DNA from: Candidatus Aminicenantes bacterium
Lineage (GTDB): Bacteria; Acidobacteriota; Aminicenantia; Aminicenantales; Saccharicenantaceae
DNA: 64,000 nucleotides
Direction: 5' to 3'
Assembly: GCA_041320535.1 (NCBI GenBank)
Contig: JBGLNH010000001.1
Span: 7,670-71,669 of the forward strand
The notes below the pieces were generated by a model. It saw only the letters and a program-made list of their open reading frames with translations. It was not told where the DNA came from and made no database searches. Shown here one piece after another: positions 9,591-59,000 of this stretch. Within the stretch, counting starts at the first letter, position 1. Each line of letters starts with the position of its first letter. The translations under genes and the position numbers were made by a program.

Positions 9591-12436
<2,846 letters not shown>

Positions 12437-12440
<4 letters not shown>

Positions 12441-13828
12441 GCACCAAGGGCATCATCCACATCATCGACGACGAGCCGGTCATCCACGACGTCCTGGCCC
12501 AGCTCCTGACGTCGGAGGGCTACGAGGTCGAGATCTCGGCCTCGGGCGAGGAGGCCCTGGAGAAGTTCCCCTCCCACTCCTTCGACGTCGTCCTCCTCGA
12601 CCTCCTCATGCCGGGGATGGACGGCATCGAGACCCTGCGCCGGATCAAGCGGATCGAGCCCCAGGCCGCCGTCATCATCATCACCGCCTACGGCTCGGTC
12701 GAGTCGGCCATCTCGGCCATGAAGATCGGCGCCCTGGACTACGTCCAGAAGCCGTTCAAGCACGACGACCTCCTCCTGGCCGTCGAGAAGGCCGCCGAGC
12801 GCAAGCGCCTGCAGGACGAGAACGTCCGCCTCAAGGACGAGCTCCGGCAGCGCTTCGGCTTCGCCAACATCATCGGGAAGAGCCCGGTCATGAAAAGCGT
12901 CTTCGACCTCGTCAAGGCCGCCGCCCCGACGCGGAGCACGATCCTCCTCCAGGGCGAGAGCGGCACCGGCAAGGAGCTCGTCGCCCGGGCCATCCACGCC
13001 AACTCGAACCGGGTCGAAGCTCCCTTCATCACCGTCAACAGCGGCTCCCTCCCGCCCGACCTGCTCGAGAGCCATCTCTTCGGCCACGTCAAGGGCGCTT
13101 TCACGGGCGCGGTGGCCCTCAAAAAGGGCCTCTTCGAGGCGGCCGACCGCGGCACGATCTTCTTCGACGAGGTCTCCTCCATCGGCCTCGAGACCCAGGC
13201 CAAGCTCCTCCGGGTCATGCAGGAGAAGGAGTTCATGCGCCTCGGCGGGACCCAGACGATCAAGGTCGACGTCCGCATCCTGGCGGCGACGAACACGGAG
13301 ATCGAGGAGCTCATCGCCGGGAAGCTCTTCCGCAAGGACCTTTACTACAGGCTCAACGTCATCAAGATCGACATCCCTCCCCTGCGCGACAGGAAGGAGG
13401 ACATCCCCCTGCTCGTCAAGCACTTCGTCGAGGTCTACGCCCGCGAGAACCGCAAGGAGATCGAGGGGGTGTCGGAGGACGTCCTCGAGATCCTCGACGG
13501 CCACGCCTGGCCGGGCAACGTCCGCGAGCTCGAGAACCTCGTCGAGCGGGCCGTCGTCCTGGCCCGGGACAAGGTCATCACCCGGTCCTATCTGCCGCCC
13601 TTCCTGCTCCGCGGCGGGCGGTCCGACGAGGGCGCGGAGGTCTCCGACGAGGGCTCCCTCGATCTCCGGGACCGCACCCAGGCCTTCCAGAAGAAGCTCA
13701 TTCTGGCCGCGCTCAAGAAGACCAAGGGGGTCCAGAACAAGGCCGCCAAGCTCCTGGGGGTGAAGCCGACGACGCTCAACGAGATGATCAAGCGGCTGGG
13801 GATCGACGCGGACAGCGTCCCGTCCTAG
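12437..13828 (+). CDS. sigma-54-dependent response regulator (NtrC/PilR family)
   Basis: Receiver domain (DLLMPGMDG), AAA+ GESGTGKE, the GAFTGA sigma-54 contact loop and a C-terminal HTH. 4-nt overlap with the kinase gene. Confidence 0.9.
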
Positions 13829-25532: not shown

Positions 25533-28195
25533 GCCCGGAGCGGCTCTTCCTCGTCGACGGGAACTCCCTCCTCTACCGCTCCTATTACGCCGTCCAGAAG
25601 CTGGCCACGTCGGGCGGCTTCCCGACGGGCGCCGTCTTCGGCTTCCTCAGCTCGCTGCGCAAGCTCCTCGACGACGGGAAGCCCGACTACCTGGGCGTCG
25701 TCTTCGACGTCAAGGGCCCGACGGTCCGCCACGAGGAGTACGGCGCCTACAAGGCCAACCGCAAGCCCATGCCCGACGACCTGGCCCTCCAGGTCCCGGT
25801 CCTCAAGGACGTCCTGCGCGCCCTGCGGGTGGCCACGGCCGAATTCCCCAAGTACGAGGCCGACGACGTCATCGCCTCGCTCGCCGCCCGTGCCTCGGCC
25901 CGGGGCCTCCACACGGTCGTCGTCACGACCGACAAGGACCTGCTCCAGATCGTCGACGAGAGGACCTCCGTCTGGAACCCCTCCAAGGAGATGGTCATCG
26001 ACCCGTCCAACGTCGAGGAGTTCTTCGGCGTCGGGGCCGGATCGGTCGTGGACGTGCTGGCCCTCTGGGGCGACCCCTCGGACAACGTCCCCGGCGTCCC
26101 CGGCATCGGCGAGAAGACGGCCAAGGCCCTGGTCCGGGAATACGGGTCCGTCGACGGCCTTCTGGCCGGCCTCGACCGGGTCAAGAACCCCCGCCTCCGG
26201 GAGCGGCTCACCCAGAACCGGGACTTGCTCGAGCTCAGCCGCCGCCTGGTCACGGTCTGCCGCGACCTCGACCTCGATCTCGACCTCGACCGGTACGCCG
26301 TCCAGGCGCCCGACGAGAAGGAGACCGTCCGGCTCTTCGGGGAGCTCGAATTCTCCTCCCTGCTGTCCGACTTCCTCGAGGCGCCGCGGCCGCTCGAAAA
26401 GACCTTCCGGACGGTCTTCGACGAACGGGAGCTCCGGGCCCTGGCCGAGCGGATCGCCGAGGCGGGCGCGGTCGCCCTGGACACCGAGACGGACGGGCCG
26501 GCCCCCACCCGGGCCCGGCTCGTCGGCCTGTCCTTTTCGCTCGCCGCCGGCGAGGCCTTCTACGTCCCGGTCGGGCACGATTATCTGGGGGCGCCGGCCC
26601 AGATCCCCAAAGCCCGGGCCCTGGCGGTCCTCCGGCCCGTGCTCGAGGACGATCGGATCGCGAAGACGGGACAGAACATCAAGTACGACCTCATCGTCCT
26701 CGAGCGGGAGGGCGTCCGCCTGGCCGGCGTAGCCCGGGACACCATGGTCCTGTCCTACCTTCTCGAGCCCAACTGGGGCAAGCACGGCCTCGAGCGCCTG
26801 GCCCTCCATTATCTCCGCGAGACCAAGGCCCCCTACGAGGAGATCGTCGGCCGGGGCAAGAACGAGCTGACCATGGACAAGGTGGCCGTCGAACGGGCCG
26901 CGCCCTACGCCTGCCAGGACGCCGCTTTGGCCTGGGAGCTCGGCGGGCTTCTCTGGGACAAGGTCCGGGCGAGGAAGCTCGGCCGGCTCTACGAGGACAT
27001 CGAGCGGCCCCTCATCGGCCTCCTGGCCCGGATGGAGATCGTCGGGGTCCGGGTCGATCCCGCCGTCCTGCGGTCGATGTCCAAGGAGCTCGAGGGCGAG
27101 CTCGGACGCCTGGAGAAGGAGATCCACGAGCTCGCCGGCTGCGCCTTCAACATCCAATCGCCGCGCCAGCTCTCCGACGTCCTCTTCCACAAGCTGGGCC
27201 TGCGGCCCTCGCGCCGGACCCGGGTGACCAAGGGGTTCTCCACCTCCCTCGATATCCTCGAGGACCTGGCCGGGGAGCACCCGCTGGCCCGCCGCGTCCT
27301 CGAGTTCCGGCAGATGGCCAAGCTCAAGTCCACCTACGCCGACGCCCTGGCGGCGCTCATCGACCCGGCGACGGGCCGCATCCACACCTCCTACAACCAG
27401 ACCGTGGCGTCCACGGGCCGCCTCTCGTCGAGCGAGCCGAACCTTCAGAACATCCCGGCCCGGGGGCCCTGGGGAGCGCGCTTCCGCCGGGCCTTCGTGC
27501 CGGACGACGGGCACGTCCTGCTCGCGGCCGACTATTCCCAGATCGAGCTCCGGGTCCTGGCCCACCTGTCGGAGGACCCGGCCCTGGTGAAGACCTTCCT
27601 CGAGGACCGCGACGTCCACGAGGAGACGGCCCGGCTCGTCTTCGGGAACGCTCCCGGCGAGGACGCCCGGCGGCGGGCCAAGATCATCAATTTCAGCATC
27701 GTCTACGGCGCGTCGGCCTTTTCCCTGGCCCGGGAGCTGGGGACGTCGGCCGGCGAGGCCCAGGCGTTCATCGACCGCTATTTCGCCGAGCTGCCCCAGG
27801 TCCGCCGCTACCTGGACCGGATCGTCGACGAGGCCCGCGAGCGCGGCCACTCGGAAACGATCTTCGGCCGCCAGCGCCAGGTCCCGGAGCTCCGGGCCCC
27901 GGACCGGGCCCTCCAGCAGGCCGGCCGGCGCATCGCCCTCAACAATCCCATCCAGGGCTCCGCGGCCGACATCATCAAGGTGGCCATGCTCCGGGTCGAC
28001 AAGGCCATCGGGGAGCGGCGCCTCGGGACCCGCATGATCCTCCAGGTCCACGACGAGCTCGTCTTCGAGGTCCCCCGGGGGGAGGAGGAGGCCGTGGAGC
28101 CGCTGGTCAGGGAAGCCATGGAAGGGGCGGCGGACCTCCGCGTCCCCCTCAAGGTGCGGCTGGGGTTCGGCCCGAGCTGGGCGGACGCGAAGTAG
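25529..28195 (+). CDS. polA: DNA polymerase I (5'-nuclease, 3'-5' exo-like and polymerase domains)
   Basis: In-frame 5'-nuclease motif RLFLVDGNSLLYRSYYA starts at 25541, well upstream of the track start 25769. No ATG/GTG/TTG occurs in this frame between the stop at 25265 and 25769. CTG 25529 with GAAGG 9 nt upstream is proposed as the start. Confidence 0.9.
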   Translation: MSPERLFLVDGNSLLYRSYYAVQKLATSGGFPTGAVFGFLSSLRKLLDDGKPDYLGVVFDVKGPTVRHEEYGAYKANRKPMPDDLALQVPVLKDVLRALRVATAEFPKYEADDVIASLAARASARGLHTVVVTTDKDLLQIVDERTSVWNPSKEMVIDPSNVEEFFGVGAGSVVDVLALWGDPSDNVPGVPGIGEKTAKALVREYGSVDGLLAGLDRVKNPRLRERLTQNRDLLELSRRLVTVCRDLDLDLDLDRYAVQAPDEKETVRLFGELEFSSLLSDFLEAPRPLEKTFRTVFDERELRALAERIAEAGAVALDTETDGPAPTRARLVGLSFSLAAGEAFYVPVGHDYLGAPAQIPKARALAVLRPVLEDDRIAKTGQNIKYDLIVLEREGVRLAGVARDTMVLSYLLEPNWGKHGLERLALHYLRETKAPYEEIVGRGKNELTMDKVAVERAAPYACQDAALAWELGGLLWDKVRARKLGRLYEDIERPLIGLLARMEIVGVRVDPAVLRSMSKELEGELGRLEKEIHELAGCAFNIQSPRQLSDVLFHKLGLRPSRRTRVTKGFSTSLDILEDLAGEHPLARRVLEFRQMAKLKSTYADALAALIDPATGRIHTSYNQTVASTGRLSSSEPNLQNIPARGPWGARFRRAFVPDDGHVLLAADYSQIELRVLAHLSEDPALVKTFLEDRDVHEETARLVFGNAPGEDARRRAKIINFSIVYGASAFSLARELGTSAGEAQAFIDRYFAELPQVRRYLDRIVDEARERGHSETIFGRQRQVPELRAPDRALQQAGRRIALNNPIQGSAADIIKVAMLRVDKAIGERRLGTRMILQVHDELVFEVPRGEEEAVEPLVREAMEGAADLRVPLKVRLGFGPSWADAK

Positions 28196-28209: not shown

Positions 28210-28378
28210 AGTACGGCCGCCCCTGTCCGCGGCTGTGCCCGGGAATGGGCTCTAGCCCCCCGGCCCCCCCGGGGAACCTGGCCCGACGGTTCCCCCGCCT
28301 TCGGCGGGTCCCCCTCCGCTACGGGGGTCGTCGAGTCCATTTCCCTCGCCGCCTCCGGAGGGACGGCCGGGACCGGCC
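28210..28378 (-). repeat. hairpin-rich intergenic repeat, copy C (reverse orientation)
   Basis: The reverse complement aligns along about 150 nt with 52281-52442 and 57837-57996, sharing ...ccccgtagcggaggggg acccgccgaaggcggggg aaccgtcgggccaggttcc...ctagag... Confidence 0.8.
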
Positions 28379-28379
28379 G

Positions 28380-29513
28380 TCAAATCATCTTATAGAACGC
28401 CCGGTACTTCTTGTAGATCGTCCCGCCCATGCGCTCCATCTCGGCCCGGACCTTGACGTTGGCCTCCATCTCGTGGTGGGTGTCCATCATCTCGTAGCCG
28501 GCCTCGTAGGCCCCGATGAGGATCCTGACGCCCATGAGCACGTCCAGGCCCTGGCCCCGGTACTTCTCCTTGACCGCCCCGAGCAGCAGGTCGAGCTGCT
28601 TGGTCTTCTTGGCGGCCCGGAGGACGCGGATGAAGCCGAACGGGAGGAGCCGGCCCCGGGCCTTGCGGATGCCCTCGGTCATGTCCGGCATGGCGATGAT
28701 GAAGGCGGCGACCTCGTCGTCCTTCTTGACGGCCTTGACGAAGCGCGGGTCGAGGACCGGGAGATAGCGCTTGGCCAGGTCGTCCATCTCCTCCTCGGTG
28801 AGAGGCGCGAAGCCGTAGATGTTCCCGGCCATGTAGCACTCGTTCATGAGGGACAGGATGGGCCGGATCCAGGGCTTGATCTCCTTGCGCTTGCGGAACT
28901 CGACGATCTCGTACGTCCCCCGCTTCATGGCCCGCTCGAAGATCTTCTTGTAGAACTCCGGCGGCTCCTTGGGGACGTCGAGCTTGTAGACGAACCAGTC
29001 GCAGTCCTTGGCGTAGCCGTCCTCCTCGAGCCAGGCGGGCATCCACTCGAAGTTGTAGTAGGTGGCGATCGTCGCCCGGTGCTCGAAGCCCTCGATGAGG
29101 AAGCCCTCGGGGTCCTGGTCGGAGAAGCCGTAGGGGCCCACGATCTTGGTCATGCCCTTGGCCCGGGCCCAGTCCTCGACCGCCCGGAGGAGGGCCGTGA
29201 ACGCCTCCTTGTCCTCGTAGACGTCGAAGTAGCCGAAGCGGGCCGTCCGCTCGTTGCGGTGCTCGTTGAAGCGGTGGTTGATGATGCCCATGATCCGGCC
29301 GACGGGCCGGCCGTCCCGCCAGGCGACGAGGAGCGTCGTGTCGCAGTAGCCGAAGGCCTTGTTCTTCCTCCTGTCGAAGTATTTCCAGTCGTCCATGTAG
29401 ATGGGGTGGACCCAGTTGGCGTGGCCGGCGTGGATCTTCTCCGGGAGATAGATGAAGGTCTTCAGGCCCCGGCGGGACAGGACTTCGCGGATGTCGATGG
29501 CCATGGTCGTCAT
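28380..29513 (-). CDS. GNAT-fold acyltransferase-like protein (uncharacterised conserved family)
   Basis: 377 aa with RGQGLD-type acetyl-CoA loop and two GNAT-like halves. Confidence 0.55.
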   Translation of the reverse strand: MTTMAIDIREVLSRRGLKTFIYLPEKIHAGHANWVHPIYMDDWKYFDRRKNKAFGYCDTTLLVAWRDGRPVGRIMGIINHRFNEHRNERTARFGYFDVYEDKEAFTALLRAVEDWARAKGMTKIVGPYGFSDQDPEGFLIEGFEHRATIATYYNFEWMPAWLEEDGYAKDCDWFVYKLDVPKEPPEFYKKIFERAMKRGTYEIVEFRKRKEIKPWIRPILSLMNECYMAGNIYGFAPLTEEEMDDLAKRYLPVLDPRFVKAVKKDDEVAAFIIAMPDMTEGIRKARGRLLPFGFIRVLRAAKKTKQLDLLLGAVKEKYRGQGLDVLMGVRILIGAYEAGYEMMDTHHEMEANVKVRAEMERMGGTIYKKYRAFYKMI

Positions 29514-49091: not shown

Positions 49092-49954
49092 CCGCGCGGT
49101 CGTTCGCCAAGATCAACCTCGGTCTCGAGATCGTCCGGAAAAGGCCGGACGGCTATCACGACATCCGGACGCTCTTCCAGACCGTCACGCTCGCCGACGA
49201 GATCGACTTCGAGCCGGCCCCGGCCGGAGCGATCGAGCTCACGGGCGACGATCCTTCCGTGGCCTGGGACCGCACCAACCTCGTCGCCAGGGCGGCCCGG
49301 CTCCTTCTCGAGCGGACCGGGCGGCCGGCCGGGGCCAGGATCGCCGTCAGGAAGAGGATCCCGGCCGGCCGCGGCCTCGGCGGCGGAAGCTCGAACGCCG
49401 CGACGACCCTCCTCGTCCTGGACAAGATGTGGGGCCTCGGCCTGGGGGCCGACGCCCTGGCCCCCCTGGCGAGAAGCCTCGGGGCCGATGTCCCCTTTTT
49501 TCTCAAGGGGGGCCTCTGCCTGGGGGAGGAGATCGGGGACAAGCTGACGCCTCTCGCCGACCTGGAGCCCCTGGCCTGCCTGTTCGTCTTCCCCCCGTTC
49601 CCCATCGCCACGCCGTCGGTCTACGCCGGCGTCGGGCCAGCCTTGACTTCGACGGCCAAAGTCAGTAGAATTGAGCGCTTTCTGGAGTCCCGAGACTTCG
49701 GTCTCTTGGAAAACGACCTGGAGCGCGTCATTTTCCGGGCCCATCCCGAGCTCGAACGCTGGAAGAGTTTTTTCAGGGACGCGGGGGCCCTCGTCGCCCA
49801 GGTCAGCGGCTCGGGCTCGGCGGTGTTCGGGCTCTTCCCGGATCCGGCGAGCGGAGAGAGGGCGCGGAGGAGGCTCCCCGGCACGGCGGACGCCCGGCTC
49901 GCGGCGACGCTGCCGCGGCGGGGCTATTGGGCCCAGCTAGGCGCTGGGGCGTAG
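49088..49954 (+). CDS. ispE: 4-diphosphocytidyl-2-C-methyl-D-erythritol kinase
   Basis: MTARSFAKINLGLEIVRKRPDGYHDI... and GHMP motif PAGRGLGGGSSNAA. ATG 49088 overlaps the upstream stop. Confidence 0.9.
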   Translation: MTARSFAKINLGLEIVRKRPDGYHDIRTLFQTVTLADEIDFEPAPAGAIELTGDDPSVAWDRTNLVARAARLLLERTGRPAGARIAVRKRIPAGRGLGGGSSNAATTLLVLDKMWGLGLGADALAPLARSLGADVPFFLKGGLCLGEEIGDKLTPLADLEPLACLFVFPPFPIATPSVYAGVGPALTSTAKVSRIERFLESRDFGLLENDLERVIFRAHPELERWKSFFRDAGALVAQVSGSGSAVFGLFPDPASGERARRRLPGTADARLAATLPRRGYWAQLGAGA

Positions 49955-50015
49955 CCAAGCGGAAAGGCAACGGACTTTGGCTCCGTCATCGGAGGTTCGA
50001 ATCCTCCCGCCCCAG
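49945..50015 (+). tRNA. tRNA-Gln (anticodon UUG)
   Basis: Acceptor TGGGGCG/CGCCCCA, anticodon arm ACGGA-CTTTGGC-TCCGT, T arm GGAGG-TTCGAAT-CCTCC. No encoded CCA. Confidence 0.9.
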
Positions 50016-50044
50016 TTCGGACGATATAAGGCGAGGAAAGAGCG

Positions 50045-51686: not shown

Positions 51687-52262
51687 TTGTGGCTGCTGGT
51701 GGGCCTGGGCAATCCGGGCGACGAGTACGCGGGGACCCGCCACAACGCCGGCTTCATGCTGGTCGAGCGGCTGGCGGCGGCCTGGGGCGTCGAGGTCCGG
51801 GGCCGGCTTTTCAAGGCCCGGACCGCCCTGGCCCGGAGGGGCGGGGAGGAGGTCCTCCTCGTCGCCCCCAAGACCTACATGAACCGGAGCGGGACGTCCG
51901 TCCGGGCGGCCCTGGAAGGCAAGGGCGTCCCGCCCGAGCGCCTGATCGTCGCCTACGACGACCTCGACATCCCGGCCGGCGAGGTCCGGGTCCGGAAGAG
52001 GGGCCGGCCGGGCACGCACAAGGGCATGATCTCGATCGCCGGCGAGGTCCGGACCGACGAGTTCCCCCGGGTCCGGATCGGCATCGGACCGCTCCCGGCG
52101 GGCCGGGACGCGGCCGAGTTCGTCCTCGAGCCTTTCAAGCGGGACGAACGCCGGCTCCTCGAGGACAGCCTGGGCGCCGCCGCCGAGGCCGTGGAGATGA
52201 TCCTCGACGGCCGCATCGAGCTGGCCATGACGCGGTTCAACCGCCGCTCCCCGGGCCGTTGA
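51687..52262 (+). CDS. pth: peptidyl-tRNA hydrolase
   Basis: TTG start. WLLVGLGNPGDEYAGTRHNAGF. Confidence 0.95.
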   Translation: MWLLVGLGNPGDEYAGTRHNAGFMLVERLAAAWGVEVRGRLFKARTALARRGGEEVLLVAPKTYMNRSGTSVRAALEGKGVPPERLIVAYDDLDIPAGEVRVRKRGRPGTHKGMISIAGEVRTDEFPRVRIGIGPLPAGRDAAEFVLEPFKRDERRLLEDSLGAAAEAVEMILDGRIELAMTRFNRRSPGR

Positions 52263-52263
52263 G

Positions 52264-52461
52264 CTCGATCCTTTTCCCCTTTCCGGGCCTCCCTCTCGAG
52301 GCGGCGAGGGGTTTTGCCTCGACGATCCCCGTAGCGGAAGGGGACCCGCGAAGCGGGGGAACCGCCGGGACTGGTTCCCAGGGGGTCCGGGGAGCTAGAG
52401 GCAATACCCTGAGCCAAAGCCGGAGAGAGGGACTTCCCGGAATCGGGATACGGCCCTTGAT
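52264..52461 (+). repeat. hairpin-rich intergenic repeat, copy A
   Basis: Core 52281-52442 aligns almost base-for-base with 57837-57996. Starts right after the pth stop. Confidence 0.85.
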
Positions 52462-52549
52462 ATTTCCGGGGAATCAGCTACAATGGCTCTTTTCCACTCC
52501 TTGTTCCTTCCGGAAGGGAAGGAGCTGTCGAAACCATAAGGAGGTCTCA
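52457..52549 (+). promoter_or_regulatory. candidate rpsF promoter and structured leader
   Basis: TTGATA (52457-52462), 16-nt spacer, TACAAT (52479-52484). Hairpin CTCCTT-...-AAGGAG at 52497-52524. AAGGAGG Shine-Dalgarno at 52538-52544. Confidence 0.35.
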
Positions 52550-53181: not shown

Positions 53182-54672
53182 ATGAAAGTCATCCTGAAAC
53201 AGGACGTGGAGAAGCTGGGCCGCCGCGGCGACGTCGTCAACGTCGCCCCCGGATTCGGCCGCAACTATCTCATCCCCCGCAAGATGGCCCTGGCCGTCAC
53301 CCAGACGAACATGAAGACGATCGAGATCGAGCGCCAGGCCCTAGTTTTAGGGCCGGATGCGAGGCGGGGAGAGAAGAAGGACGCGGTCATGACGCGAGAG
53401 AGCGCGGTCGAAAGGAGGAGCGTCCTCCTCTACAACGTCTACCGGCTCGTCGTCCTGACCTCGCTGCTCGTCTCGGCCTTCATCATCCAGCTGTCCTCGC
53501 CCGAGACCCAGCCGAACCCGCCTTTCTATTACCTCGTCCTGGGCGCCTACGGCTTCGCCGCGCTCTTCTTCGCCCTCTACGCCGCGGGCCGGTTCCTCGC
53601 CGCCCAGGCCTACGTCCAGGTCGTCTTCGACCTCGTCCTCATCACGGCCTTCGTCTACATCTCCGGCGGCATCGCCTCGTCGATGTATTTCCTCTACCTC
53701 TTCCCGATCATCGCCGCGGGCCTGGTCATCTCGGGGCGGGCCGGCTTCCTGGCCGCGTCCCTCTCGGCCATCCTCTTCGGGGGGCTCGTCGACGGCGTCC
53801 ACTTCGGGCTCATCCCCAGCTTCCGCCCCGAGCACGCCGTCCGGACGACGCTCGGCTCGATGCTGGTGACCATCTTCTTCGCCTGGAGCGTCTTTTTCGT
53901 CATCGCCGCGCTGATGAGCAAGCTGGCCGGCGGCCTCCGCCGAGCCCGCGAGGCCCTGCGGGCGGCCGAGAGGGAGCTCCTCCTCCGGGAGCGCCTGGCC
54001 GAGGCCGGCCGCGTCTCGGCCAGCCTGGCCCACGAGATCCGCAACCCGCTGGCGGCCATCTCCGGCTCGGTCCAGGTGCTCCGCAAGGAGCTGGACCTGA
54101 CCGACGAGCAGCGGGAGCTCATGGCCATCGTCCTCAAGGAGTCGGAGCGCGTCTCCCAGAGCCTGGAGCAGTTCCTCGATTTCGCCCTTCCGGCCAAGCA
54201 GGTCTTCGCCCCGATCAACCTGAGGGACATCCTCGACGAAACGCTCAAGATCCTCCGAAGCGGGGGGGAGCTCAACGGCCAGGTCGAGGTCACGGGGAAC
54301 TTCCGCGCGTCCGACGTCCCCTATTACGGCAACGCCGGCCAGTTCAAGCAGATCTTCTGGAACCTCATCAAGAACGCCGTCAAGGCCATGCCCGAGGGCG
54401 GCCGGCTCCGGCTCGACTTCACCGAGCCGCGGAAGAAGGAGGTCGGCATCCTCGTCGCCGACACGGGGAAGGGGCTGTCCGAGGCCGACAAGGAGCACCT
54501 CTTCGAGCCCTTCTACACCGGCTTCGAGAACGGCCGTGGCCTGGGGCTGTCGATCGTCCGCAAGATCGTCGACGACTACGACGGCCGGATCGAGGTCCGC
54601 TCCGAGCTCCGTCAAGGGACGGAAGTCCTGATCACCCTGCCGCCGCGGAAGGCCGCGGCCCCGGGGAGATGA
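53182..54672 (+). CDS. single ORF fusing the ribosomal protein L9 N-terminal domain (about 53 aa) to a PilS-like 6-TM sensor histidine kinase
   Basis: Residues 1-53, MKVILKQDVEKLGRRGDVVNVAPGFGRNYLIPRKMALAVTQTNMKTIEIERQA, match the L9 N-domain. From ATG 53389 (MTRESAVERR...) come TM helices, H-box SLAHEIRNPLAAI, N-box NLIKNAVKAM and G-boxes. No stop codon lies between the two parts. Confidence 0.8.
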   Translation: MKVILKQDVEKLGRRGDVVNVAPGFGRNYLIPRKMALAVTQTNMKTIEIERQALVLGPDARRGEKKDAVMTRESAVERRSVLLYNVYRLVVLTSLLVSAFIIQLSSPETQPNPPFYYLVLGAYGFAALFFALYAAGRFLAAQAYVQVVFDLVLITAFVYISGGIASSMYFLYLFPIIAAGLVISGRAGFLAASLSAILFGGLVDGVHFGLIPSFRPEHAVRTTLGSMLVTIFFAWSVFFVIAALMSKLAGGLRRAREALRAAERELLLRERLAEAGRVSASLAHEIRNPLAAISGSVQVLRKELDLTDEQRELMAIVLKESERVSQSLEQFLDFALPAKQVFAPINLRDILDETLKILRSGGELNGQVEVTGNFRASDVPYYGNAGQFKQIFWNLIKNAVKAMPEGGRLRLDFTEPRKKEVGILVADTGKGLSEADKEHLFEPFYTGFENGRGLGLSIVRKIVDDYDGRIEVRSELRQGTEVLITLPPRKAAAPGR

Positions 54673-57770: not shown

Positions 57771-58640
57771 ATGGCCGCGGAACGGAAGGCGCCGAATTTC
57801 GGGGGAATCGACGGAAAAAAAGGTTCTTCTCCGATCTCCGGGATACCCTCTCGAGGCGGGGAGGGAATTCGCCTCGAAGATCCCCGTAGCGGAGGGGGGC
57901 CCGCCGCAGGCGGGGGAACCGACGGGACTGGTTCCCAGGGGGTCCGGGGAACTAGAGGCGATTCCCGACCGGAAGCGCAGAGAGGGACTTCCCGGAAATG
58001 GGAGAAGAACCGGAAAAAAACGGCCTCCGGGATAAAGGCGGTTTCGACGGCGTCGGGCATCCAAGGGTCACCGTCTCCGCGGCCGGACGCCGTCCAGGCC
58101 GACGAGCTTCACGCTATCCTCGAGGCCTTCCTGAGGGACCGCGGCGCGGCCCTCGAAGCGGCGGTCGCGGCCGTCGCGTCGAGCCTCGACGCCGGGGGCA
58201 AGGTCCTCGTCTTCGGCAACGGCGGCAGCGCCGCCGAAGCCCAGCACTTCGCCGCCGAGCTCGTCAACGGCTTGGCCCGGCACGACCGCCCGCCCGTCGC
58301 GGCCCTGGCCCTGACCGCCGACACCGCGTCCCTTACGGCCATCGGCAACGACCGCGGCTTCGCCGAGGTCTTCGGCCGTCAGGTCGAGGCGCTGGGCCGT
58401 CCCGGCGACGTGGCCCTGGCCCTGACGACGAGCGGCGCCTCTCCCGACGTCGTCGAGGGCCTGCGGGCGGCCCGCCGGAAGGGCCTGGTCACGATGGCCC
58501 TGACCGGCGAGGGAGGCGGGGAGGCCGGGCGGCTGGCGGACCACCTTCTCGACGTCCCGTCACGTTCGACGCCCCGCGTCCAGGAAGCGCACCTCTTCAT
58601 CCTCCACCTCATGGCCGCCCGGCTCGAATCGGCGCGCTGA
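57771..58640 (+). CDS. gmhA: phosphoheptose isomerase (SIS domain, GmhA-like) with a repeat-encoded N-terminal extension
   Basis: SIS motifs GKVLVFGNGGSAAEAQHFAAELV, TAIGND, TTSGASP and RVQEAH from about 58090. The only in-frame canonical start with a Shine-Dalgarno (GGAGGA 57759-57764) is ATG 57771, upstream of repeat copy B. Confidence 0.75.
   Translation: MAAERKAPNFGGIDGKKGSSPISGIPSRGGEGIRLEDPRSGGGPAAGGGTDGTGSQGVRGTRGDSRPEAQRGTSRKWEKNRKKTASGIKAVSTASGIQGSPSPRPDAVQADELHAILEAFLRDRGAALEAAVAAVASSLDAGGKVLVFGNGGSAAEAQHFAAELVNGLARHDRPPVAALALTADTASLTAIGNDRGFAEVFGRQVEALGRPGDVALALTTSGASPDVVEGLRAARRKGLVTMALTGEGGGEAGRLADHLLDVPSRSTPRVQEAHLFILHLMAARLESAR
57812..58020 (+). mobile_element. hairpin-rich repeat copy B with MITE-like termini
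   Basis: GGTTCTTCTCC (57822-57832) and its exact reverse complement GGAGAAGAACC (58001-58011), bracketed by CGGAAAAAAA at 57812-57821 and 58011-58020. Core 57837-57996 matches copy A. Confidence 0.7.
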
Positions 58641-58855: not shown

Positions 58856-58904
58856 GTCCCTACCCCGGGCCGCCTCGATTCGTGAAGAGTTCAGGCTAGA
58901 AAGC

Positions 58905-59000
58905 GGGGGGAGTTGCCTCGACGATTCGGGTCCGTGGAGGGGGATGCGGCGGGGAGGGGAGTTCTCACCCTGAGCCGGAACCCGAGAGAGAAACCTCGCA
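58905..59000 (+). repeat. degenerate or internally deleted relative of the repeat family (copy D)
   Basis: Shares ...ttgcctcgacgat... and ...accctgagccggaacccgagagag... with copy A but lacks the central hairpins. Confidence 0.4.

Follow-up and report, generated by a model that had tools for sequence, protein, structure and literature searches.

A probable family of miniature inverted-repeat elements with a conserved branched apex in Candidatus Aminicenantes

Aminicenantes (OP8) are abundant, uncultured bacteria of sediments and groundwater, and their non-coding DNA is essentially unannotated. Here we describe an intergenic repeat found in a 64,000-nt stretch of contig JBGLNH010000001.1 of a Candidatus Aminicenantes bacterium (assembly GCA_041320535.1, positions 7,670 to 71,669; hereafter the window), where one copy, termed A, lies between the stop codon of pth and the promoter of rpsF. 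A reading of the sequence alone had described A as one of three full copies of a hairpin-rich repeat, with B on the same strand and C reversed, and had placed a shortened relative (D) at about 58905-59000. The window was searched by nhmmer with a family profile built from members of T1, the subfamily type present in the window. Exactly three strong copies (A, B and C) and one marginal match were recovered:

52267-52456, + strand: copy A, full element of 190 bp, with boundaries set by homology with copy B (nhmmer match 52267-52452, + strand, E = 6.5e-53)
57822-58011, + strand: copy B, full element of 190 bp with good terminal inverted repeats, GGTTCTTCTCCGATCTCCGGGA ... TCCCGGAAATGGGAGAAGAACC (nhmmer match 57822-58010, + strand, E = 4.6e-50)
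28218-28372, - strand: copy C, with core and inner arms intact by pairwise and four-way alignment and nhmmer (nhmmer match 28367-28218, - strand, E = 5.3e-29)
58903-59000, + strand: copy D, relic of a T1-type copy, two collinear blocks of which align to A
25769-28195, + strand, and 28380-29513, - strand: polA and a GNAT-domain gene, the convergent neighbours of copy C

Repeat finding recovered A and B as direct repeats and C as an inverted repeat of each, and a four-way alignment showed A, B and C to be collinear, bearing out the three full copies as clear homologues. The core flagged earlier in copy A stands, but the element is longer than had been proposed and includes degenerate terminal repeats. 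The fold of copy A is far more stable than that of shuffled sequence, with z = -4.3 for the + strand and z = -3.4 for the - strand. In copy C the outer terminal repeats are absent or have given way to other sequence, and the alignment confirms that its closing helix is different yet complementary. The homology of D also holds, in two blocks, yet relative to A this copy has lost ~45 nt internally, including one hairpin of the core (H3) and part of another (H2). Its profile match is marginal (58903-58943, E = 0.06), and its fold is no better than that of shuffles (z = -1.0); D is therefore a decayed, internally deleted relic. Every window copy is intergenic, as had been stated, and the flanking genes (pth, rpsF, a PlsC-like acyltransferase gene, a SIS-domain gene, polA and the GNAT-domain gene) are backed by Pfam.

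The position of copy A was compared with orthologous pth loci fetched from eight related species (retrieved loci carry L numbers). In L094, L096 and L097 the pth-rpsF spacer lacks the element, whereas the promoter and leader of rpsF are conserved. These empty sites read TTGAATTT, with the pth stop codon in or beside TTGAAT(TT), the -35 box of rpsF, and the rpsF promoter TTGAAT-N17-TAGAAT is conserved across L093-L099. In the window, a promoter scan gave TTGATA-16-TACAAT at 52457-52484, and the exact position of copy A is after the pth stop codon and before the rpsF -35 box, between two flanks that are alike at 5/8 bases:

52259-52266, + strand: left flank of A, TTGAGCTC, with the TGA stop of pth; presumably the left-hand target duplication
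52457-52464, + strand: right flank of A, TTGATATT; presumably the right-hand target duplication, at the same time the rpsF -35 box

Copy A landed in TTGAATTT, which contains the stop codon of pth as well as the -35 box of rpsF, and neither signal was lost in the duplication. Because the orthologous spacers are empty, copy A is an insertion and not part of the rpsF leader or of a pth terminator. A core-deleted remnant occupies the same site in L093. Polymorphism is also seen elsewhere: in the convergent spacer between polA and the GNAT-domain gene, the L090 element is reversed relative to that of the window (copy C), L059 carries a different subfamily at the spot occupied in L090, and L026 and L040 have flanks in common and subfamilies that differ. 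No orthologous site of copy B was found among the related loci, with all of which synteny stops at ~53340.

Two further observations concern the spacer itself. A different small hairpin repeat (GGGAATCCCGGGACATAGGGATTCCC, in one or two tandem copies) lies between pth and rpsF in L095 (8060-8190) and L099 (8070-8130), and the spacer seems to be an insertion hot spot. The rpsF leader (window 52485-52549, between promoter and start codon) contains a hairpin, ACTCCTTGTTCCTTCC-loop-GGAAGGAGCTG...CCATAAGGAGGTCTCA; conserved in all eight related species and scoring below the Rfam threshold, it is probably an S6/S18 autoregulatory leader.

The ends of the element were defined from an alignment of 85 copies. 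The hairpin extends past the closing helix described earlier to conserved ~25-bp terminal inverted repeats, GGTTCTTCTCCC(R)AT.TC.GGG ... CCC.GA.AT(Y)GGGAGAAGAACC, which are found in B and in many copies of the T1 and T2 subfamilies, are degenerate in A, and are absent from C, from the T3 subfamily and from minimal forms. End to end the element measures 187-206 bp (~190 bp in the A/B type). Across 19 copies the 8-bp direct flanks match at a mean of 5.68/8 positions, compared with 3.89 +/- 0.34 after permutation (0/2000 permutations were as high), and are 83% A+T in genomes of 55-68% GC. The match reaches 8/8 in L015 and in copy B, the duplications of which are:

57813-57821, + strand: left target-site duplication of B, GGAAAAAAA, identical to 58012-58020
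58012-58020, + strand: right target-site duplication of B, GGAAAAAAA, a perfect match to the left copy

Small size and lack of coding capacity, terminal inverted repeats, a target duplication of fixed length and dispersed copies with orthologous presence or absence, by which miniature inverted-repeat transposable elements (MITEs) are recognized, are thus all seen. The open reading frames (ORFs) that cross the element, the similar peptides of which had already been put down to the repeated DNA, are artefacts, and the core is not coding, since H2 changes length in steps that are not multiples of 3. The terminal repeats and 8-bp A/T-rich duplications, together with the empty pth-rpsF sites and the difference in orientation at the polA spacer, support the view that the A/B type is a ~190-bp MITE-like element, one of the candidates that the sequence-only reading had put forward.

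The same terminal repeats (GGTTCTTCTCCC...GGGAGAAGAACC) also bound the members of a second MITE family, which are 277-526 bp long, lack the core and have a different conserved interior (AAGCGCGTTTCTTTTTGTGCC...ATCAATGGCGCAGGGGTGATGCCTGGAGGA). Its members lie in L092 (1186-1711 and 4870-5150), L174, L176, L177 and L181-L185, and have no match in Rfam. One site is empty in L182 and occupied in L181, inside the loop of a terminator-like hairpin. In L092 and L183 a core-less element adjoins a core-bearing one, and such a pair may move as a composite.

The whole core-bearing element forms a long imperfect hairpin with a three-way junction at its tip. This core of ~65 nt leads from the rod into helix P1, then through a conserved, purine-rich unpaired strand of 13 nt, UAGCGGAGGGGG(R), and the hairpins H2 and H3 back to P1. 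In copy A, core alignment and covariation delimit it as follows:

52326-52393, + strand: three-way-junction core of A
52326-52331: P1, 5' strand
52332-52344: J1/2, TAGCGGAAGGGGA
52345-52357: H2
52358-52378: H3
52379-52387: spare G-run
52388-52393: P1, 3' strand

The consensus of H2 is CCCGCC-loop-GGCGGG, with a stem mostly of 5-15 bp and of quite different sequences. In the window it has 5 bp in A (CCCGC-GAA-GCGGG) and 6 bp in B and C, so the earlier remark that A is one pair shorter with its stem kept was correct. H3 has the form GGAACC-GNCGGGACU-GGUUCC; its loop, GNCGGGACU, is conserved and its stem alternates between GGAACC/GGTTCC and GGGACC/GGTCCC. The H2 pairs of 189 distinct copies, the total analysed, comprise 1333 Watson-Crick, 27 G.U, 6 A.C and 11 mismatched pairs. 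In a 133-copy alignment, H2 and H3 together are paired at 96.7% and show 75 double-change cells, compared with 24.6 +/- 4.1 in column shuffles (reached in 0/500), and pairing drops to 33-66% when the registers of the two hairpins are slid. P1 is formed by a C-run and the G-run distal to H3, and diverged copies carry fully compensated variants of it: GGCACA/TGTGCC (L236), GACGCA/TGCGTC (L269), ACCCAG/CTGGGT (L224 and L240), CCCCCA/TGGGGG (L229, L231, L251 and L276) and GGCCCTC/GAGGGCC (L217). The base of P1 in the T1/T2 alignment is split between U-A and C-G (16 versus 34), consistent with this pairing. Of the three central hairpins proposed from the sequence alone, H2 (the GNA hairpin) and H3 are therefore borne out by covariation, but CCCC-GTAGCGGA-GGGG is not a conserved pairing, the C-run co-varying in diverged copies with the distal G-run. 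The spare G-run between H3 and P1 is a feature of the A/B/C type and is lacking in other subfamilies. RNAalifold, run on T1 and T2 copies, offered a GGGGACC/GGTTCCC helix in place of H3; this was rejected because the changes from GGAACC to GGGACC and from GGTTCC to GGTCCC always occur together.

The compensatory changes and conserved loops support the view that the core is constrained as a folded single strand. The excess of G.U over A.C in H2, in which several cells share ancestry, weakly favours the + strand as the strand that folds. Selection on structure, proposed earlier for the whole repeat, is thus upheld for H2, H3 and P1, whereas the complementarity of the long closing helix is partly an effect of subfamilies of a palindromic MITE. 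The most conserved part of the element is its centre, the branched apex, and not its ends, and the apex is common to elements with unrelated ends.

Searching beyond the window, as the sequence-only reading had proposed, retrieved >200 relatives from dozens of Aminicenantes genomes. In a species-representative genome collection, an exact 23-mer of the core occurs at 92 places and a pattern based on H3 at >120 further places. Nearly all matches are in metagenome-assembled genomes labelled Candidatus Aminicenantes, or mislabelled 'Eubacteriales' and syntenic with them; three complete chromosomes, OY969586.1, OY970261.1 and OY969696.1, are among the sequences with family matches, and a few matches fall in contigs labelled Yanofskybacteria (41% GC), Clostridiales, Desulfaltia and Elusimicrobia. 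From the 8 extra copies found, besides the anchoring ones, in ~660 kb of flanking DNA and the 3 intact copies in the 64-kb window, we roughly estimate that a genome contains tens of copies, perhaps up to about two hundred. As in the sequence-only reading, the repeat could not be assigned to a known RNA family. At gathering thresholds, Rfam 15 returned for the window only a tRNA-Gln (TTG; 49944-50016, + strand), which is the sole Rfam or ARAGORN RNA gene there, and no family on the repeat; for copy A at E <= 10 it returned only mraW (E = 6, 13 bits against a gathering score of 50), and for eight diverse loci at E <= 1 nothing on the element. A scan of IMG/VR viral contigs for the repeat gave 0 matches, and no literature on Aminicenantes repeats, MITEs or RNAs of this sort was found. 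The family thus appears to be undescribed so far.

The arms of the hairpin are wholly different among subfamilies yet complementary within each: they read CCCTCTCGAGGCGGCGAGGG... in T1, GGGGAAGTCCGTCGTGAGGCGGCGATGG... in T2 and GACGCTGCCCGGGCAGTGATGGGGG... in T3, and differ again in shells ii and iii and others. This complementarity should not be read as RNA covariation, because a palindromic MITE splitting into lineages would show much of it anyway. The same core tops hairpins with unrelated ends in T3 (GGACGC...GCGTCC), shell ii (CTAATACAAACGCAATAA...) and shell iii (AAGCATCTC...ATGTGATT), as well as minimal copies of 107-117 nt without evident terminal repeats, among them L236 at 107 nt. 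In several copies of shells ii and iii the flanks merely continue the hairpin. A search for core-less versions of these two shells gave nothing informative in a sample that is biased to core-bearing loci. It is possible that the family is old and constrained only at its apex, or that the apex is a module acquired at hairpin tips. Decayed relics are represented by D, L093, L027, L046 and L061; L027, considered as a copy with cargo in H2, proved to be a truncated left half only.

Some individual arrangements are worth recording. A convergent spacer of L004 (2475-2817) contains a REPIN-like pair of T3-type copies, arranged head to head at a distance of ~240 bp; in one of the pair H2 is long and fully compensated (CCCATCCCGCTTC-GAGA-GAAGCGGGATGGG). 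In L040 (6630-6860) an element is partly duplicated in tandem: an H3 with its 3' tail and arm precedes a full copy that has this same arm, an arrangement suggestive of within-copy slippage or recombination. In contigs labelled Yanofskybacteria (40-42% GC), minimal copies of ~112-115 nt at L211 (1190-1290), L224 (5810-5920) and L240 (3120-3230) combine AT-rich stems with the same GC-rich core. The spacers that they occupy, mraY-ftsW and pheS-gyrB (this gyrB contains an intein), belong to housekeeping clusters, and in each case the copy is antisense to both neighbours. Unless these contigs are mis-binned, such copies suggest that the family has spread beyond Aminicenantes.

Taken together, these results make it likely that the family to which copy A belongs, abundant in Aminicenantes, consists of small MITE-like elements that are non-coding and non-autonomous and whose apex is constrained as a folded strand. 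Such an element would be moved in trans by a DDE-type transposase binding its terminal repeats. Ends that start with GG[C/T]TCTTC (GGCTCTTC), along with an A/T-rich duplication of 8 bp, recall what we take to be hallmarks of the ISL3 family; a literature search for published ISL3 end sequences gave nothing usable for comparison. The core would then act in a transcript or in the single-stranded DNA of the element itself, where it might be a binding or processing site for the element's persistence or spread. Our best guess is accordingly of a role for the element's own benefit, as RNA or as single-stranded DNA.

Several observations weigh against this interpretation. Copy C has no terminal repeats, and those of A are degenerate, with a flanking duplication that matches at only 5/8 bases. 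For T3 and for shells ii and iii, terminal repeats together with duplications could not be demonstrated, and transposition driven by terminal repeats cannot explain the whole family, since the core also occurs in these shells with unrelated ends. No transposase gene with these terminal repeats was found in ~2.9 Mb of Aminicenantes DNA, examined as 8-kb loci, or in pattern scans. The same loci held no pair of terminal repeats 0.7-4 kb apart enclosing a gene, and no repeated DNA of insertion-sequence size. A genome-wide scan for the interior of the core-less sister family returned 14 matches, all of them elements of 277-526 bp and none a transposase carrier, and the only recurrent proteins within 2.5 kb of the 189 copies were spurious ORFs reading through the repeat. 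The strand signal is weak in the long arms (354 G.U versus 289 A.C), and the gene calls used to describe genomic context come from a crude, noisy heuristic based on GC3.

With these calls, T1/T2 spacers are 19 convergent, 24 tandem and 1 divergent, that is, the copies are mostly downstream of genes, unlike those of T3, which are enriched in divergent spacers (12/22). The orientation of T1/T2 copies relative to genes (17 versus 7) is not significant, and orientation relative to local GC skew is random (83 versus 97); given the latter and the slight asymmetry of the arms, there is no support for a fixed role in host transcripts. A cis-regulatory role of the T3 copies was considered and rejected, their neighbours being unrelated (nadC, tldD, uppS, efp, purM, a sigma factor gene and others). 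Unrelated neighbours, random orientation with respect to GC skew and the antisense placement in L211 and L224 all disfavour host cis-regulation, and we do not think that the element is a regulator of neighbouring genes.

The conservation of the apex invites a different, though in our view doubtful, explanation: that the ~110-nt unit of a 26-30-bp stem plus the junction is primarily a structured-RNA gene (perhaps a protein-binding small RNA or a new self-cleaving ribozyme), spread through the genome by copying, and that some subfamilies gained their terminal repeats secondarily. Across hosts of 40%-69% GC, including the contigs labelled Yanofskybacteria, the sequences of the junction strand and of the H3 loop remain conserved. 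Compensatory changes in P1, H2 and H3, the GNRA or UUCG loops of some H2 copies, the 27 G.U against 6 A.C pairs in H2, minimal copies of 107-117 nt without evident terminal repeats, and a core common to unrelated shells all fit such a gene. However, no conserved promoter or terminator accompanies the unit, its orientation is random with respect to flanking genes and GC skew, it is antisense to both neighbours in L211 and L224, and tens of copies per genome together with decayed relics are typical of selfish repeats. In a related and similarly tentative version, the ~65-nt junction (UAGCGGAGGGGG, H2, and H3 with its GNCGGGACU loop) could be a new functional module, either a structured RNA class or a module acquired at hairpin tips. 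If so, this would explain its presence atop palindromes with unrelated ends in many Aminicenantes species and in a candidate-phyla-radiation genome, and the new-RNA version would imply, for example, a ribozyme or protein-recruiting RNA carried by mobile DNA.

It is less probable still that the elements resemble repetitive extragenic palindromic (REP) sequences or REPINs, with a folded single-stranded DNA core moved by an HUH transposase (a REP-associated tyrosine transposase, RAYT, or one of IS200/IS605 type) and recognition or cleavage at the conserved unpaired G|TAGCGG strand. This would accommodate the T3 and minimal subfamilies, in which neither terminal repeats nor duplications are detectable, and a hairpin with a single-stranded GTAG-containing motif resembles what we take to be the logic of REP sequences. 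Many H2 copies have GNA triloops (for example, GCGAAGC), which are very stable in DNA, and orientation relative to genes is random. Yet the terminal repeats and 8-bp duplications of the A/B type are not products of HUH transposition, and the units are large (107-206 nt, compared with 20-40 nt for REPs) and have a branched core. No recurrent neighbour gene, RAYT-like or other, lies within 2.5 kb of the 189 copies, and there is no orientation bias with GC skew, although mobility dependent on the lagging strand should leave one.

That copy A is a local cis element, a pth terminator or part of the rpsF (S6) leader or operator, is suggested by its position and its strong GC-rich hairpin but is hardly credible, being refuted by the empty orthologous sites of three related species with the same junction, promoter and leader, as well as by copies beside unrelated genes and the lack of a U-tract after A. 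An integron attC site was also rejected: the sequence contains no R''/R' core sites (RYYYAAC / GTTRRRY), and the neighbours are housekeeping genes (pth, rpsF, polA and the plsC-like gene).

Two further features of the loci may be noted. An ORF at window 53182-54672 (+ strand) joins the N-terminal domain of ribosomal protein L9 (amino acids 1-46) to a PilS-like 6TM histidine kinase (HisKA and HATPase_c). At ~53333-53341, inside rplI, synteny with every related locus fetched is lost at both the DNA and the protein level; the fusion reflects either a chimeric assembly or a genuine rearrangement. Downstream of it lie kinase and response-regulator genes that are paralogues of those at 11719-13548. 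In L217 (2659-2789) there is a cobalamin riboswitch (RF00174, 87.7 bits), which is unrelated to the repeat.

A repeat present at tens of copies per genome breaks assemblies, makes spurious ORFs and muddles the annotation of intergenic regulatory regions, all of which is visible in the window, and copy A exemplifies an element that inserts between a stop codon and a promoter and destroys neither. The core, if it acts as RNA, is a candidate for a new class of structured RNA; if it acts as a DNA structure, it is a sign that repeats of this sort are recognised or propagated by a mechanism so far overlooked.

Among known systems, the closest in kind are the bacterial MITEs that form long hairpins and are transcribed, namely Correia/NEMIS of Neisseria, ERIC/IRU of enterobacteria and RUP of Streptococcus pneumoniae. 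These are likewise non-coding elements of 100-200 bp with terminal inverted repeats and a target duplication, and their intergenic copies, often immediately 3' of a gene, number tens to hundreds; they, too, fold over their whole length as a long imperfect hairpin and have subfamilies and internally deleted variants. Their sequences are unrelated to those of the Aminicenantes family, in which the duplication is 8 bp and A/T-rich rather than TA and no cognate transposase was identified in the DNA surveyed. What sets this family apart from known MITEs is that the asymmetric junction at the tip, and not the ends, is most conserved and that the same tip is common to elements with unrelated ends. 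As for a source of the terminal repeats, ISL3 elements presumably share the GG[C/T]TCTTC ends, the 8-bp duplication and the A/T-rich targets, but the likeness covers only the first ~8-10 bases, and no transposase gene lies between such ends in the loci examined. REP sequences, bacterial interspersed mosaic elements (BIMEs) and REPINs are more loosely comparable: they share dispersed intergenic hairpins with compensatory change and a short conserved single-stranded motif, occurrence in both orientations and enrichment at the 3' ends of genes, whereas the elements described here are much larger (110-200 nt), have a branched core and, in the A/B type, terminal repeats with 8-bp duplications, and have no RAYT gene found nearby. 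The HEARO/omega-RNA and IS605-orfB motifs of Rfam are similarly multi-copy, strongly structured with covariation and tied to mobile DNA; by contrast, the Aminicenantes element matches no Rfam model, has no adjacent nuclease or transposase gene, and carries its three-way junction at the tip of a palindromic MITE.

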